This document shows, piece after piece, positions 3,722-9,931 of a stretch of 64,000 bases of DNA (position 1 is the first letter of the stretch; each line of letters opens with the position of its first letter). A program made the translations under genes and the position numbers. The stretch is from contig JBFGLM010000003.1 in NCBI GenBank assembly GCA_041576165.1, forward strand, positions 32,001 to 96,000, given 5' to 3'. The notes beneath the pieces are model-generated. The model saw nothing but the letters and a program-made list of their open reading frames with translations, did not search any database and was not told the DNA's origin. This DNA comes from Acidimicrobiia bacterium. Its GTDB lineage: Bacteria > Actinomycetota > Acidimicrobiia > Spongiisociales > Spongiisociaceae.

Positions 3722-4621
3722 TCAGAAATGCCAGGGGAACTCGCTGTAGTCCTGGGGCCGCTTCTCGAGAAAGGCATCGCGACCCTCCTGGGCCTCATCG
3801 CTTGCGTAGGCGAGCCGGGTTGCCTCGCCGGCGAAAACTTGCTGGCCGACCAACCCGTCGTCGATGAGGTTGAAAGCGAACTTCAGCATCCGTTGCGCGG
3901 TTGGGCTCTTGCGGTTGATGATGTCGGCCCATTCGAGGGCGGTTGTTTCCAACTCGGCGTGGGGGACGGCCCGGTTCGCCATCCCCATCGCCACCGCCTC
4001 CTCAGCCGAGTAGTCGAATCCGAGGAAGAACAGCTCCCGGGCGCGCTTTTGACCCATCTGGCGAGCTAGATACGCACTACCGAAACCACCGTCGAAGCTG
4101 GCCACGTCAGCGTCGGTCTGTTTGAAGACTGCGTGTTCCCGGGAGGCAAGCGTGAGATCGCACACGACGTGGAGGCTATGTCCGCCGCCCACTGCCCAGC
4201 CCGGCACAACCGCGATGACGATCTTGGGCATGAAACGTATCAGCCGCTGGACCTCCAGGATGTGGAGCCGCCCCACCCGGGCCGGATCGATCGCCTCCGC
4301 ACTATCCCCTTCCGCATATTTGTATCCGTCCCTGCCGCGGATGCGCTGGTCGCCGCCGGAACAGAACGCCCAAATCCCGTCTTTGGGTGAGGGCCCGTTA
4401 CCGGTCAGCAGGACCGTTCCCACGTCGGTCCACTGGCGGGCGTGATCGAGTGCCCGGTACAGCTCGTCGACAGTGTGGGGCCGGAACGCGTTGCGAACCT
4501 CTGGCCGGTTGAAAGCAATCCGCGCCGTGCCTTGGTCGACTGCACGGTGATAGGTGATATCGGTGAAATCGAAGCCGTCGACTGCGCTCCACCGGTCCGG
4601 GTCGAAGAGTTCAGACACCAT
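3722..4621 (-). CDS. menB: 1,4-dihydroxy-2-naphthoyl-CoA synthase
   Basis: AFNRPEVRNAFRPHTVDEL, FCSGGDQRIRG, LHILEVQRLIRFMPK, GWAVGGGHSLHVVCDLT, QTDADVASFDGGFGS: actinobacterial MenB motifs. Confidence 0.96.
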   Translation of the reverse strand: MVSELFDPDRWSAVDGFDFTDITYHRAVDQGTARIAFNRPEVRNAFRPHTVDELYRALDHARQWTDVGTVLLTGNGPSPKDGIWAFCSGGDQRIRGRDGYKYAEGDSAEAIDPARVGRLHILEVQRLIRFMPKIVIAVVPGWAVGGGHSLHVVCDLTLASREHAVFKQTDADVASFDGGFGSAYLARQMGQKRARELFFLGFDYSAEEAVAMGMANRAVPHAELETTALEWADIINRKSPTAQRMLKFAFNLIDDGLVGQQVFAGEATRLAYASDEAQEGRDAFLEKRPQDYSEFPWHF

Positions 4622-4722: not shown

Positions 4723-4851
4723 ATGAAACGATTGATGGCCGCAGCCCTGACCGTCGCCGTCATCTGGGCTGCCTGCGGACAGAATCCAACGGCGTTGGGC
4801 GAGTACGAGATAGAACCGGCCGACGCCGCGCATGTGATCGAACTGACGTGA
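4723..4851 (+). CDS. Small putative lipoprotein (42 aa, below the ORF-track cutoff)
   Basis: AAGGAG RBS, then MKRLMAAALTVAVIWAAC-GQNPTALGEYEIEPADAAHVIELT*: basic N-terminus, hydrophobic core, lipobox-like WAAC. Confidence 0.5.
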   Translation: MKRLMAAALTVAVIWAACGQNPTALGEYEIEPADAAHVIELT

Positions 4852-4861
4852 TGCTGCGCAG

Positions 4862-5797
4862 TCAGTGAGTGGGTACTGCTTCCGGTTCACACACGCCACA
4901 GGCGACCGAATCGCCGTGGGCAACCACCGCCGCCAGACGGTCCTGCTCCGTTTGGTACTGGGGGGTGTCGTGCCGCGGGGTGCGGTGGTCGATGAGCTCC
5001 CGCGCCTGGTCCTTCCACGGCGTTCCCCAGGAATAGGTCAGTGGCAGGATCGTGCCCGGCTCAGAGATCGATGCGAAAGCGGCGAGCGCGTCGCGCATGA
5101 TCGACACCTGCTCCGCGGGCCGGCCCGGCCGCCCGGTCGTGTGGCCGAGCGGGAAGTCGAGGAAGACGGCGCGGGGAGGGTGCGCGGCTGCCGTGATCGA
5201 CCACGCGCTCGTCATACAGAGAGTGGGGATACCGGCGGCCTCGATCTCGCGTGCGATCAGCCCAACTGACTGATGGCAAACCGGTCAGACCGGCACCAGC
5301 AGCACCACATCGGCGGCCATTTGTTGGACCTCGCCGACGAGGCGGGGGATCAGCTCCGACCGAAGCCGTCGCTGCGAGTAGATCCCGCCCATGAAGGTCA
5401 GCGCGTGCGGAGTGAGGCTGCCCAGCTCTCCCGACTCAACCATGAAACGGAGCGGCTCGATCGGGAAGACGACGTTGGGGTCGCGGCGGGCGTCGGTCTG
5501 GTCGTAGGCGAAGTGGGTGACTCTCAGATCGGTCACCGCGATGGATGTCTCCACCCTTCGGTAGCTCACGTCGTCTTTGTGAGTGAATGCAACCTGGCCG
5601 GATCGGTAGATCCCGCCTGAGGCGATCAGGGCCAGGCGCGCCTGGGCCATCGGAAACGCCATGGGCACGAGCGCCGGCGGGTCGGGGTTGGCGGCCCAGC
5701 GGTATTCGCCATAACCGAGACTGTTGTACGTGGCTCGGGTTTGGGCGATGTAGTCGACCACATCAAGTTCAGCAGGTGCCGGGCGCGGGAACATCAC
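4862..5797 (-). CDS. Selenoprotein of the glycine/betaine/D-proline reductase selenoprotein B (GrdB/PrdB-like) family; Sec at TGA 5287-5285
   Basis: Track ORFs 5285..5797 and 4862..5215 are in the same frame and separated only by one TGA: ...DVVLLVPV-U-PVCHQSVGLIAREIEAAGIPTLCMTS. Family motifs RLALIASGG, DPNVVFPIEPL and PPRAVFLDFPLGHTTG are present. Confidence 0.85.
5252..5278 (-). other. Putative bacterial SECIS hairpin
   Basis: mRNA after UGA-CCGGUU reads UGC-C-AUCAGUC-[AGUUG]-GGCUGAU-C-GCA. The apical loop starts 17 nt after the UGA and has G at loop position 2. Confidence 0.65.
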
Positions 5798-6240
5798 GCG
5801 TCCTCAGGCGGTGGCCAGGCCGGGTCGAGCTGGCGCAAGAATTGTTCCACCCGTTCGTGCTCGTTGTGTTCCCCGATGCGCTGCGCGAGGCGGCCCAGTC
5901 CGGCGAGGCACGACAGGAAGCCCCGGTTGGCCTCATGGTCCCACCGAACGTAGCCACTCCCGCGCCAGCCGTTCTTACGCAGAGCGTCCAGCCCCCGGTG
6001 GTACCCGACCCGGAACGCGCTGTAGGCGTGAACCACGTCCACAGCGGAGGTCGCAGCTGCTTCGGTTGCCCGTCCCAACGCCGCCCAGGCGGCGAGGCTG
6101 GCGGGATGTTCGGCGATCACGCCGGCTAGACCCTCGGGGTCGGATCCGGCTGCAGCCAGCCGGGCGTGGAGATCGGCGTCCTCAGCCGGGAGGACGGTAT
6201 CGGGTGGCCCCTCGGCGGAGAGGTCGACTGGCTGGCTCAT
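5794..6240 (-). CDS. DUF3151 family protein
   Basis: AYSAFRVGYHRGLDALRKNGWRGSGYVRWDHEANRGFLSCL matches the actinobacterial DUF3151 motif as I recall it. Its stop overlaps the selenoprotein start. Confidence 0.8.
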   Translation of the reverse strand: MSQPVDLSAEGPPDTVLPAEDADLHARLAAAGSDPEGLAGVIAEHPASLAAWAALGRATEAAATSAVDVVHAYSAFRVGYHRGLDALRKNGWRGSGYVRWDHEANRGFLSCLAGLGRLAQRIGEHNEHERVEQFLRQLDPAWPPPEDA

Positions 6241-6273
6241 CACCCCAGCCTAAACGCCTGCCGGGCGGCGCTG

Positions 6274-7200
6274 TCATCCGGCGATCATCCCGGCATGAAC
6301 GTGGAGCACCGGGCGTCCGGCCTGTACCTCGAGCTGCGTAGCCCAGCCCGAGAACGCCACAGGGGCGCCGAACCAGATCGTCAGGTTGACGCCCAGCGGC
6401 CCCCGGGTGGGCCACCGGCTCTCCGCACGACCCATATCCCTGCGAAGGTCCATAGGGAAAGGCAAGATCGGCGATTACCGCGGGCGATGAGTGATTCCAT
6501 GTCGTCACTCGCCAGCTCGGGCTCGATCCGGCGGTCCCATGCAAACTGCATGTCGGCCGGCCATTGCCGCCGCGTCGCGCCTGACCCTTCGATGCCGGGC
6601 GGCGGTTGCGGATCGAGCTCCGGCATCGGCGCGATCCCGCGGATCCTGATGGTGAGGTCGGAATCGAGCGGGATTCGGATGACGTGCTGGTCGTGCCAGT
6701 CGACGCCCAGTTCATCCCCGCCGAAATCCGGGACGCAGAGATCCGGACGATCTGCGGTGAAACGACTGACCGAAATTAAGAGACCCCAGCCTGGGCGCCC
6801 GTGGTCAGGTCGGCGAAGTAAACGCCGTCGGCCGGAAGCCGGTGGTCGGAAAGGGAGCGCCGGGCGACTCCGGCCCGACATAGTTGGTGCCGCAGCCCCG
6901 CCGGCAACGGGCAGGTCGACATCGGCAGGTGCCAACCCGTATCCATGTGGATGGTGGGATACGCGGTTCGGTGACGTAGCCGTGATTGATGTAGATCCAA
7001 ACCGGGTCAGCCATGCTCGGTGTCCATTCGTCCCGAGCCAGACGGGAACCGTCGGCCAAATGGACGACCCAGGGGGGCCAGTGCGAGCGTTCGCAGCTGC
7101 GGATTCGCGTTGACTGAGCCGGGGCCGGCAACGTTTCGGTTTCCGGTGGTCGTGTATCTGGCGACCCGCAACTCGCCACCAGGGCAGTTACCAGAAGCAA
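6274..7200 (-). pseudogene. Multiply frameshifted lipoprotein gene (pseudogene or assembly indels)
   Basis: Lipobox-like LVASC-G near 7170. Protein-like segments then move between frames (PVWIYINHGYV / RLPADGVYFADL / DLCVPDFGGDELGVDW / WATQLEVQAGRPVLHVHAGMIAG*). Confidence 0.45.
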
Positions 7201-7357
7201 CGAAAGTCAGCGCGCCAGCGGGGAGCCGGCCAGTTGCTGCAACACAGCGACTCCGTTTTCGGCGTGACCGCTCCCCTGTCAGCGTTGCGCCGGCGGGGGA
7301 CGTTGCCTCGAGAGCCCAACGTCACCGTGTGTCAGGTTTTACGCGCTGTGCGTTCGA

Positions 7358-9931
7358 TCAGACGAAGCGAATCTCGCCGTCACCGGCATCTACCGTCACG
7401 GTGTCACCGTCGGTGAAGTTGCCGGCCAGCAGTTCGACCGCCAGCCGGTCCGCGACCTCCTTTTGCAACACTCGCTTGAGCGGCCGGGCCCCGTAGCTGG
7501 GGTCGTACCCCTGCTCCGCCAACCATTCTTTCGCGACGTCGGTGAACTCCAGCTCGATGTTCCGCTGCCGCAACCGGCCCGCCAGCATCGCAGCCTGGAT
7601 GCCGACGATTTGGCGCAAGTCGTCTTTCGACAGCCGGTGGAACACGATCAGCTCGTCGACCCGGTTGAGGAACTCGGGGCGAAAATGCGACTGGGCTGCG
7701 TTCAGCACGCGTTCATTGACCACCTCGTCGGGCAGATCAGGCTGGATGAACTCCGAGCCCAGGTTGGAGGTCATGATCACCACTGCGTTGGTGAAGTCGA
7801 CCGTCCGGCCCTGACCGTCGGTCAAGCGCCCGTCGTCCATGAGTTGCAGCAGCACATTGAACACATCCGGATGCGCCTTCTCGATCTCATCGAGCAGGAT
7901 CACTGCATAGGGACGGCGCCGGACGGCCTCGGTCAGCTGGCCGCCCTCGTCGTACCCCACATATCCGGGCGGCGCTCCGATGAGACGGCTGACCGAGTGC
8001 TTCTCCATATATTCCGACATGTCGATTCGAACCATCGCCCGTTCGTCGTCGAAGAGGAACGCAGCCAGCGCCCGTGCCAGCTCGGTCTTGCCGACGCCCG
8101 TCGGCCCGAGAAACAGGAACGTCCCGATCGGTCGATTCGGATCGGAGAGGCCCGACCGGCTGCGCCGCACGGCATTGGCTACTGCCTCGACAGCGGCCTC
8201 CTGCCCGACGACCCGGGTATGGAGGTGATCTTCGAGCTTGATCAGTTTTTCGATCTCGCCCTCCATGAGACGCGAGACCGGGACTCCGGTCCAGCGGCTG
8301 ACAACCTCTGCCACATCCTCCTCATCCACCTCTTCGGTGAGCATCCGGGTGGTGGCTTGTAGCTTCTCGAGCGCCTCTTGATGTTCGGCAAGCTCCTTCT
8401 CGAATTCCCGGGTCCGCCCATAGCGAAGCTCGGCCGCCCGCTCGAGGTCACCTTCTCGTTCGGCTCGCTCGGCTCCGGTGCGCGCCTCCTCCAGCTGGAG
8501 CTTCACGTCCCGGATGTCGGCTATGGCAGACTTCTCCAGCTGCCAGTGAGCTTGCAGCCCTTCGGCGTCCTCGCGGAGGTTGGCCAGCTCCTCATCGAGG
8601 GCCGCCAGTCGCTGCTTGGAAGCTTCGTCCGTCTCTTTGGCGAGCGCGGTCCGTTCGATCTCCAGCTGCTGGATGCGCCGTTCGAGTTCGTCGATCTCCT
8701 CGGGCATCGAGTCGATTTCGATACGAAGCCGGCTGGCGGCTTCGTCGATCAGGTCGATCGCCTTGTCCGGCAGGAAGCGGGCGGTGATGTAACGGTCGGA
8801 CAAAACGGCCGCCGCCACCAGCGCCGAGTCGGTGATGCGCACACCGTGGTGGATCTCGTAGCGTTCTTTCAGCCCGCGCAGGATGCCGACCGTGTCCTCC
8901 ACCGACGGTGGTTCAACCAGCACTGGAGCGAACCTGCGCTCGAGCGCCGGATCCTTCTCAACGTGCTTGCGGAACTCGTCCAGGGTGGTAGCGCCGATCA
9001 TGCGCAGCTCGCCGCGAGCGAGCATCGGCTTGAGCATGTTGGATGCGTCCATCGAGCCTTCGGCCGCCCCGGCCCCGACGATCGTGTGCATCTCGTCGAT
9101 GAAGGTGATGATCTGACCTTCAGATGCTTTGATCTCGTTGAGGACGGCTTTGAGGCGCTCCTCGAATTCGCCCCGGTATTTGGCGCCGGCCACCATGGCC
9201 GATAAGTCAAGGGCCACTATCCGCTTGTTCTTCAGTCCTTCCGGCACGTCGCCATCTGCGATCCGGCGGGCGAGACCTTCTACGATGGCGGTCTTACCGA
9301 CTCCGGGCTCGCCGATCAGCACCGGGTTGTTCTTGGTGCGACGCGACAGCACCTGGATCACCCGACGGATCTCCTCGTCGCGCCCGATGACCGGATCGAG
9401 CTTCTGCTGGCGGGCGGCCTCGGTCAGATCGCGGCCGTACTGTTCGAGTGCATCGAACGTGGCCTCCGGGTCCTGACTGGTAACCCGTTGGTTCCCGCGC
9501 AGCTCGCTCAGAGCACCCAGAACGGCGTCTCGCGTCACGCCCAAATCGCGGAAGGCATCGCCAGCTTCGCCGGCGCTCTCGGCCAGGGCCAGGACGAGGT
9601 GCTCGACCGAGAGGTAATCGTCCTTGAAGTCGGCTCGGGCGTTGTCGGCTGCCTCCAGCATCTTGAATGCCTCGGAGGAGAAAGCTGGCTCTTCGCCCCC
9701 ATAGACCTTGGGCTTGCGGTCGAGGATTTGTTCGATCCGGCGCTTGAGCTCCGGCGGTTGGACCCCGAGCGCAGACAGCAGCGGATACACGATGCCCTCC
9801 GTCTGGGAGAGCAACGCCACCGCCACGTGCGCCGGGTCGACCTGAGTGTGGTGACGGACTTCGGCGACCTCCCGGGCCGTCACGAGCGCCGATTGCGATT
9901 TGTGTGTCAGTTTGTTGAAGTCGAAAGCCAT
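7358..9931 (-). CDS. clpB: ATP-dependent disaggregase ClpB
   Basis: N-terminal Clp repeats, NBD1 GEPGVGKT, coiled-coil M-domain, NBD2 [25 protein letters not shown]. Confidence 0.98.

Follow-up and report, generated by a model that had tools for sequence, protein, structure and literature searches.

The closest described counterparts of the gene presented here are PrdB of D-proline reductase and the GrdB, GrdF and GrdH subunits, which in their canonical form have a pyruvoyl proprotein partner (PrdA or GrdE); the D-proline reductase of Clostridium sticklandii is reportedly the subject of Kabisch et al. (1999), as cited in PMC1088965 and PMC13188914. PrdB homologues are also familiar from environmental sequencing. 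According to passages of two marine surveys, "proline reductase PrdB" (UxxC motif, pfam07355) is among the most abundant marine selenoprotein families (PMC1088965, PMC2398784), with 42 selenocysteine (Sec) PrdB genes in the Sargasso Sea (PMC1088965) and 235 Sec forms beside 110 Cys homologues in Global Ocean Sampling (GOS) data (PMC2398784), and table 3 of a 2016 genome survey gives proline reductase selenoproteins for 110 organisms (PMC5029168). A Sec-containing PrdB homologue is, on these passages, an already known kind of protein, and marine surveys have included PrdB-type UxxC selenoproteins in their counts since 2005. In this study, we describe such a homologue in a 64,000-nucleotide stretch of DNA from an Acidimicrobiia bacterium (assembly GCA_041576165.1, contig JBFGLM010000003.1, positions 32,001 to 96,000), which as a whole is referred to as the window. 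A minus-strand gene of the window is crossed by an in-frame TGA, and the best explanation as a whole, to which we give a probability of roughly 0.9, is a single-gene, 311-residue selenoprotein of the GrdB/PrdB superfamily with PrdB-like chemistry that forms a standalone subfamily.

The first ORF at this locus, of 170 amino acids (5797-5288), is terminated by TGA 5287-5285 in ...LLVPV*PVCHQSVGLIAREIEAAGIPT..., and the frame past this TGA remains open for 140 further codons up to a final TGA at 4864-4862. The full reading, 4862-5797 (-), has 311 residues with the internal TGA as residue 171, while a standard ORF list shows two ORFs here, of 170 and 117 amino acids. Translation could begin at GTG 5797-5795 or ATG 5794-5792, both of which overlap with the stop of the upstream DUF3151 gene, and after the internal TGA the closest ATG is 24 codons further downstream. 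Positions 5285-5287 are covered by run contigs from three separate studies, one of which may be the source sample, with zero differing letters; thus, the TGA is not an assembly slip. The first-pass annotation of the window had already placed the 170-residue stop at this TGA and followed the same frame to 4862, and its coordinates and its LLVPV* peptide agree exactly with our reading of the frame, which also bears out its 311 residues with Sec at about residue 171.

The same annotation regarded the two ORFs as one GrdB/PrdB-like protein, and profile searches bear this out. The PrdB model TIGR04483 matches residues 40-256 in one stretch (E 6.3e-41, 140.4 bits; profile positions 17-233 of 238). 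Homology thus crosses the TGA and continues to residue 256; an end of homology at the TGA is what the first-pass annotation had named as speaking against its reading. The Pfam GRDB family PF07355 is likewise above its gathering cutoff (26.8 against 22 bits), on residues 49-140 and profile positions 222-318 of 347 only. Orthologues (n=23) are colinear over residues ~7-310, and their pairwise divergence at the first, second and third codon positions amounts to 0.198/0.142/0.463 upstream of the TGA (150 codons) and to 0.213/0.181/0.453 downstream. To judge from these substitution patterns, the parts before and after the TGA are under equal coding constraint in one frame. Furthermore, 43 columns are invariant among 27 aligned sequences with identity down to 38%, and the polar ones, including D75, D76, R80, H95, R183, R209, D214, R275, Q282 and D286, suggest that the protein may hold a substrate pocket.

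Conservation of the TGA itself was followed in two sets of genomes. When the genomes of 40 relatives were searched in six frames, 22 of the 24 from the same family proved to have an orthologue, at 58-67% identity; the two misses are 72% and 78% complete, and every orthologue match carries an in-frame TGA. With the window included, it occupies the identical codon, in V-U-P-V-C-H-Q, in 23/23 orthologues. A scan of a species-genome collection confirmed 234 relatives, and the best 80 of these (Acidimicrobiia, Binatia and others; 54-67% identity), which were examined for the TGA and the neighbourhood, have TGA at this codon without exception. The 80 loci overlap with the 23 orthologues and the two counts are not additive. 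A true stop at this point, with either a pseudogene or two small genes (170 and about 117-140 amino acids) as its consequence, would agree with the 170- and 117-residue ORFs of standard gene calling and with the many database entries that are such fragments, but it is contradicted by a TGA held at one codon in both sets and across phyla, by coding-type selection that persists downstream in the same frame, by the invariant PVCHQ directly after the TGA with the nearest ATG 24 codons on, and by the existence of full-length homologues with Cys. We consider a true stop extremely improbable.

Uninterrupted predicted proteins cannot, by construction, display Sec, and it is therefore the residue standing in for it that is informative. 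A protein search gave 38 near-full-length proteins among the at least 120 matches listed, and 26 of those were aligned with the window protein (the 27 sequences mentioned above). Column 171 holds Cys in 23 of these 26 homologues and Thr in three, and C174, H175 and Q176 are invariant in all 27. When 1.84 billion cluster representatives were searched, 1456 matches were obtained at E<=0.001, 516 at <=1e-10 and 36 at <=1e-30. Among the best 150 of the 1456, 88 span residue 171 and have 66 Cys, 6 Ser, 6 Gly, 3 Trp, 2 Thr and 5 other residues there; a further 16 end at the TGA, 22 begin just after it, and 24 are other partials. The expectation in the first-pass annotation that automated annotation would split the gene is thus realized in the 16 and 22 halves cut at the TGA. 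Its proposal that Cys or Sec should align with the TGA fits the Cys counts of 23/26 and 66/88 as well as the Sec found in 4/4 B-subunit genes next to GrdE (below). Its counter-indication, a non-Cys residue at this position, is absent from most homologues, which have Cys, and present in a minority with Thr, Ser or Gly. Thr, Ser or Gly replaces Sec or Cys in some full-length homologues (P0007, P0014, P0015 and others), which retain P-V-C-H-Q, and the three Trp representatives are probably Sec genes called under a TGA=Trp code.

The Trp representatives are also what could be cited for a different decoding of the UGA, as Trp or Cys, by a near-cognate tRNA or a variant code, although TGA=Trp gene calls are their simplest explanation. 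Within the window genome, TGA ends 1384 of the 1807 ORFs of at least 400 amino acids with a complete stop, and as the commonest stop of long ORFs it has not been reassigned genome-wide. Together with the full Sec machinery of the genome, a hairpin at the position of a selenocysteine insertion sequence (SECIS), and Cys, the usual counterpart of Sec, in the homologous column, this leaves decoding as another residue with hardly any probability.

All components needed for Sec insertion were located in the window genome (G000), a metagenome-assembled genome (MAG) of 161 contigs and 5.1 Mb with 96.5% completeness and 7.5% contamination. Profile searches returned two selA (422.9 and 421.9 bits), two selB and one selD, and there are two tRNA-Sec genes with anticodon TCA; all of these score above their respective cutoffs. 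The selD gene at C1:171385-172317(-) itself has an in-frame TGA, in HGAG-U-ACK. The first-pass annotation had predicted SelA, SelB, SelC and SelD from the recoded UGA, and rightly so, but it had also called this machinery uncommon among actinobacteria, which the sampled genomes do not support: selA is above cutoff in 202/301 genomes of an even phylum sample (nine of them unpublished) and in 39/41 relatives (unpublished G028 and G039 within this count), including single-contig carriers of the orthologue. In the passages concerned, a 2006 survey has Actinobacteria among three selenoprotein-rich phyla (PMC1794560), and a 2026 preprint describes Sec machinery as universal in Actinomarinales, another order of the same class. 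Sec use being the rule in this lineage, a genuine selenoprotein comes as no surprise here.

The duplicated Sec genes of the window genome lie in selA-selB pairs at C24:55512-58621 and C100:605-3619, and two different tRNA-Sec genes are at C1:33376-33466 and C145:1292-1382. With only 53% identity between the two SelA proteins and no nucleotide match, strain duplicates are excluded; the relatives have one strong selA each. The explanation is either a pair of divergent Sec systems in one organism or contamination in the form of the small contigs C100 and C145. We also considered whether the Sec genes belong to another organism than the window contig, for which composition gives no support: the contigs with Sec genes have 65.0-65.9% G+C, and tetranucleotide correlation with the window contig is 0.986-0.997 for C1, C24 and C100 and 0.913 for the 3-kb C145. 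The idea of different organisms is in any case moot, because single-contig relatives contain both the orthologue and selA.

Downstream of the UGA, the transcript can form a hairpin with a 5' arm AUCAGUC (5274-5268), a loop AGUUG (5267-5263) and a 3' arm GGCUGAU (5262-5256). The 7-bp stem begins 10 nt past the UGA, with a possible lower stem of 3 bp that would bring the structure to about 5278-5252. Most orthologues have the same fold. Across 25 sequences (23 orthologues and two paralogues from the window genome), pairing is found in 96.6% of cells; in controls with the 3' arm slid by one to three columns, the figure is 5.7-45.7%. One pair covaries (C-G in 11 sequences, U-A in 6, U-G in 2, mispaired in 6), two of the remaining pairs vary on one side only, and four are invariant. 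The Ser UCA and Val GUU codons in the loop are rare in this genome of 65% G+C (6.9% of Ser and 12.6% of Val codons) and are nonetheless invariant in the 23 orthologues; in the best 80 of the 234 relatives the loop variants CGUGG, CGUAG, CGUUG, CGUCG, GGUCG and GAUCG occur. The hairpin architecture is the same in the C78 and C15 paralogues, an equivalent hairpin can be drawn by eye for the paralogue on C7 though it is not the minimum-free-energy fold, and selD has a GU-containing hairpin loop at a similar distance from its TGA. As a structure the hairpin is well supported by these comparisons, and as a SelB site it is putative only. Taken together, the conserved TGA, the Cys homologues, the hairpin, the machinery and the downstream coding constraint agree with the first-pass proposal that UGA is recoded as Sec, and the selenoprotein reading is strongly supported.

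If so, we propose that UGA 5287-5285 would be decoded as Sec by SelB and tRNA-Sec, recruited by the hairpin 10 nt downstream, which has an xGUxG apical loop. The U-x-x-C motif anticipated in the first-pass annotation is present as U171-P-V-C174, and Sec171 and Cys174 of U-P-V-C-H-Q would form the active site, capping the N-terminal end of a helix preceded by a beta-strand. In the AlphaFold2 model (mean predicted local distance difference test, pLDDT, 92; predicted template modelling score, pTM, 0.92), a three-layer alpha/beta fold is predicted, strand 164-168 is followed by helix 172-187, and residue 171 is placed at the helix N-terminal cap. A helix-cap position after a strand is typical of redox-active CxxC and UxxC pairs, as in thioredoxin-type sites. 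By homology to PrdB and GrdB, the selenol of Sec171 may be the catalytic nucleophile of a reductase and attack either a disulfide or a small bound substrate; the adduct could then be resolved by Cys174 to give a selenenyl-sulfide, which a thiol system such as thioredoxin might re-reduce. The reaction would be a reductive cleavage by analogy with PrdB/GrdB, as described in part of PMC13188914, here without the pyruvoyl partner.

A genuine selenoprotein could instead serve as a thiol/selenol redox carrier or sensor, with thioredoxin-like disulfide exchange rather than substrate cleavage. UxxC at a helix N-cap is the arrangement given for thiol-dependent redox selenoproteins in table 3 of PMC1088965, the 80 loci have no conserved metabolic neighbour, and the window gene lies among housekeeping-type genes (ClpB, DUF3151 and MenB-like). 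On the other hand, a protein of 311 residues whose 43 invariant columns, many of them polar, are distributed along the chain is more suggestive of a small-molecule pocket than of a simple carrier, and its nearest characterised relatives are substrate-cleaving enzymes. We therefore regard a carrier or sensor as unlikely, though it is the most serious of the alternatives, and favour the substrate-cleaving reductase.

The name that the protein deserves depends on how it compares with its described counterparts. PrdB (TIGR04483) is the best-scoring curated model, nearly the whole of its 238-position profile is covered, and its Sec lies in a UxxC motif as in the window protein (the motif is given in passages of PMC1088965 and PMC13188914). 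The predicted placement of residue 171 in an alpha/beta domain, with a strand before it and a helix after it, is a further likeness to PrdB. However, 140.4 bits is under half of the 300-bit equivalog cutoff, the window protein has ~40 extra N-terminal and 55 C-terminal residues with conserved W257, W261, R275, Q282 and D286, and its host clade consists of marine/sponge-type Acidimicrobiia MAGs and not of amino-acid-fermenting clostridia. With regard to GrdB/GrdF/GrdH (PF07355; TIGR01917, TIGR01918, NF040794 and NF040795), the protein is above the GRDB gathering cutoff, whereas the ~431-435-position models are matched only C-terminally (profile 220-400) with 39-42 bits; the B-subunit subfamily model TIGR01918 gives 40.1 bits against a cutoff of 65.45 on profile positions 221-397 only. 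When compared with the GrdE-adjacent B-subunit genes of relatives by tblastn, TGA aligns to position 171 in all four (L131-L134) and is followed by IExxGIP, in line with the IEXXGIPT-type segment that the first-pass annotation had recognized after the Sec; the motif in these B subunits is U-G-T-G-T-R-C, that of the window protein U-P-V-C.

The partner gene tells a similar story. PF09338, which represents PrdA/GrdE, was not found by profile search in the 96.5% complete window genome, and as a positive control the same search was above cutoff in 10/301 phylum genomes (unpublished G184 included) and in 17/41 relatives, all of the same family as the window genome. Six of the 23 orthologue-bearing genomes are without a PF09338 match (G000, G002, G004, G008, G011 and G014), and two of these, G002 and G008, are single contigs. 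In relatives that have PF09338, the window gene's orthologue is never adjacent to it, and the distance to the closest copy ranges from 95 kb to >1 Mb. By contrast, 8/8 of the distant GRDB paralogues in relatives (26-29% identity to the window protein) are within ~2 kb of PF09338. GrdA (PF04723) had no match in the window genome, with a model that was also silent in all control genomes and was used without a positive control. GrdE/PrdA-type genes adjoin Sec GRDB genes in relatives G003, G009, G012, G013, G015, G016, G019, G023 and others (e.g. L131-L134); these clusters look like the canonical glycine/sarcosine/betaine reductase type, and none were found in the window genome.

Could the protein nevertheless work with a pyruvoyl proprotein, as the canonical PrdB of D-proline reductase or as a GrdB/F/H subunit? 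Its best curated model is PrdB, the Joint Genome Institute (JGI) labels several truncated homologues "D-proline reductase (dithiol) PrdB", the Sec column and IExxGIP align with the GrdE-adjacent B subunits, and PF09338 occurs somewhere in the genomes of most same-family relatives. Set against this are the two scores far below cutoff, the missing PF09338 and GrdA matches, the orthologue genomes (single contigs among them) without PF09338, the separation of the orthologue from PF09338 where both occur, and the conserved N- and C-terminal regions beyond the PrdB model. A canonical subunit is in our view highly unlikely, and "PrdB-like" is as far as the name can justifiably be taken on these comparisons, by which the protein does not qualify as a true PrdB or GrdB subunit. 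Most likely, the window protein belongs to a distinct subfamily of ~300 residues that would work without a pyruvoyl PrdA/GrdE partner. Whether the ~300-residue U-P-V-C-H-Q proteins as a group constitute a separate selenoenzyme family, with no PrdA/GrdE partner and a substrate not yet identified, is a stronger proposition that we hold at about even odds.

Several observations weigh against the standalone selenoenzyme. GrdE/PrdA-type genes are carried elsewhere in the genome by 17/24 same-family relatives, in which a partner acting in trans is possible, and the window genome is a MAG of 161 contigs, so the absence of PF09338 there is not proof. The covariation of the hairpin is thin, as 1/7 pairs changes on both sides and 6/25 sequences are mispaired there, and its stem overlies the conserved peptide HQSVGLI, so that its conservation is partly due to coding. 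A permissive Rfam scan of 4800-5900 matched no SECIS family and gave only a chance sRNA at E 7.3; according to part of the 2026 Actinomarina preprint, bacterial SECIS elements are poorly covered in Rfam. Thr in three aligned homologues and 6 Ser and 6 Gly among the spanning representatives imply that a redox-active residue at column 171 is not universal in the wider superfamily. Structural comparison adds nothing on the chemistry, and neither sequence nor fold searches gave a solved relative: the Protein Data Bank (PDB) gave no match at E up to 1 with the single sequence and only two chance-level matches with a profile (E 0.46 and 0.72), Foldseek reached a best TM of 0.32 against the PDB, and a wide VIA-align search had a best Z of 7.7 (root-mean-square deviation 3.7-6.0 over 140-143 residues) with LacI/periplasmic-binding-protein-type and short-chain dehydrogenase folds, which are generic Rossmann/periplasmic-binding-protein-like matches within the range of common arrangements. 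Lastly, no RNA runs holding the stretch are listed.

The subfamily is present in most genomes of the window's Acidimicrobiia family and in Binatia and other lineages. The marine-survey PrdB, abundant in oxic samples according to the passages concerned, has a profile that would fit a widespread family with alternating Sec and Cys forms such as this one. In these passages the survey PrdB is filed under D-proline reductase, and a missing PrdA partner is not addressed. In a literature search of main texts without supplements, no paper was found that separates a standalone PrdB-like family, and "PrdB-like" with "selenoprotein" gave none; the portions seen of the literature on "Acidimicrobiia" and "selenocysteine" do not mention PrdB, and nothing was found for "Spongiisocius". 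It is possible that marine surveys have counted this subfamily as "D-proline reductase" since 2005. If this is true, the chemistry of a selenoprotein family that ranks among the most abundant in the sea is yet to be assigned. Because the subfamily scores well below the equivalog cutoff and occurs in genomes without a PrdA/GrdE match, the label "D-proline reductase PrdB" is doubtful and, from the profile and genome comparisons, probably wrong for it, in which case metabolic reconstructions that infer Stickland-type proline reduction from these genes would be misled. Moreover, gene callers that stop at TGA split or truncate the window gene and its three paralogues in the same genome, and 38/150 of the best representatives are such halves. 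The remaining interest of the locus lies in the chemistry of a widespread, apparently partner-less PrdB-like subfamily.

Table 1. Positions of the selenoprotein gene, its recoding signals and its flanking genes in the window
Feature	Positions	Strand	Basis
Complete selenoprotein gene (predicted), 311 codons and terminal TGA	4862..5797	-	Frame, span of the PrdB model, colinear orthologues, substitution pattern
In-frame UGA, probably read as Sec171	5285..5287	-	TGA in orthologues; Cys in homologues; TGA in GrdE-adjacent B subunits
Cys174 codon (TGC), putative resolving Cys of U-P-V-C	5276..5278	-	Invariant in alignment; role by likeness to UxxC redox motifs (passages of PMC1088965)
SECIS-like hairpin	5256..5274	-	Fold, pairing across orthologues, one covarying pair
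DUF3151 gene, upstream; context, not a shown partner	5794..6243	-	PF11349, 131 bits
Enoyl-CoA hydratase/MenB-like gene, downstream; context only	3722..4621	-	PF00378, 162.5 bits

The flanking genes of the window (Table 1) recur only in part of the wider set. The DUF3151 gene adjoins the orthologue in 14/80 loci and the MenB-like gene in 19/80, and clustering of the neighbouring ORFs over the 80 loci gave no cluster common to more than 19 of them. Synteny tracks clades and is uninformative on function. In Binatia and similar lineages (L099-L130), the orthologue lies downstream of genes that, judged by eye from example sequences, are NuoF-like and NuoG-like, and whose clusters are in 18 and 19 of the 80 loci. 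Further upstream in the window, clpB is at 7358-9931 (-), and the ~1.1 kb between the DUF3151 gene and clpB (6244-7357) contains ORFs of which those tested (6381-6935, 6805-7200 and 6166-7113) had no Pfam match.

The three additional PrdB-like genes of the window genome, with one in-frame TGA each, are at C78:3760-4542(-), C15:13809-14603(-) and C7:43394-44566(-) (loci L045, L046 and L047, respectively). Their PrdB model scores of 118-160 bits fall short of the 300-bit cutoff. Two are of ~260 amino acids and contain G-U-P-M-C-H-R, whereas the 390-residue form contains V-U-P-L-C-T-R and is considerably extended at its C-terminus. Genes for an LVIVD-repeat protein, a divergent alpha/beta hydrolase and an aldo/keto reductase neighbour both the C78 and the C15 paralogue, and the paralogue on C7 is flanked by two flavin amine oxidases.

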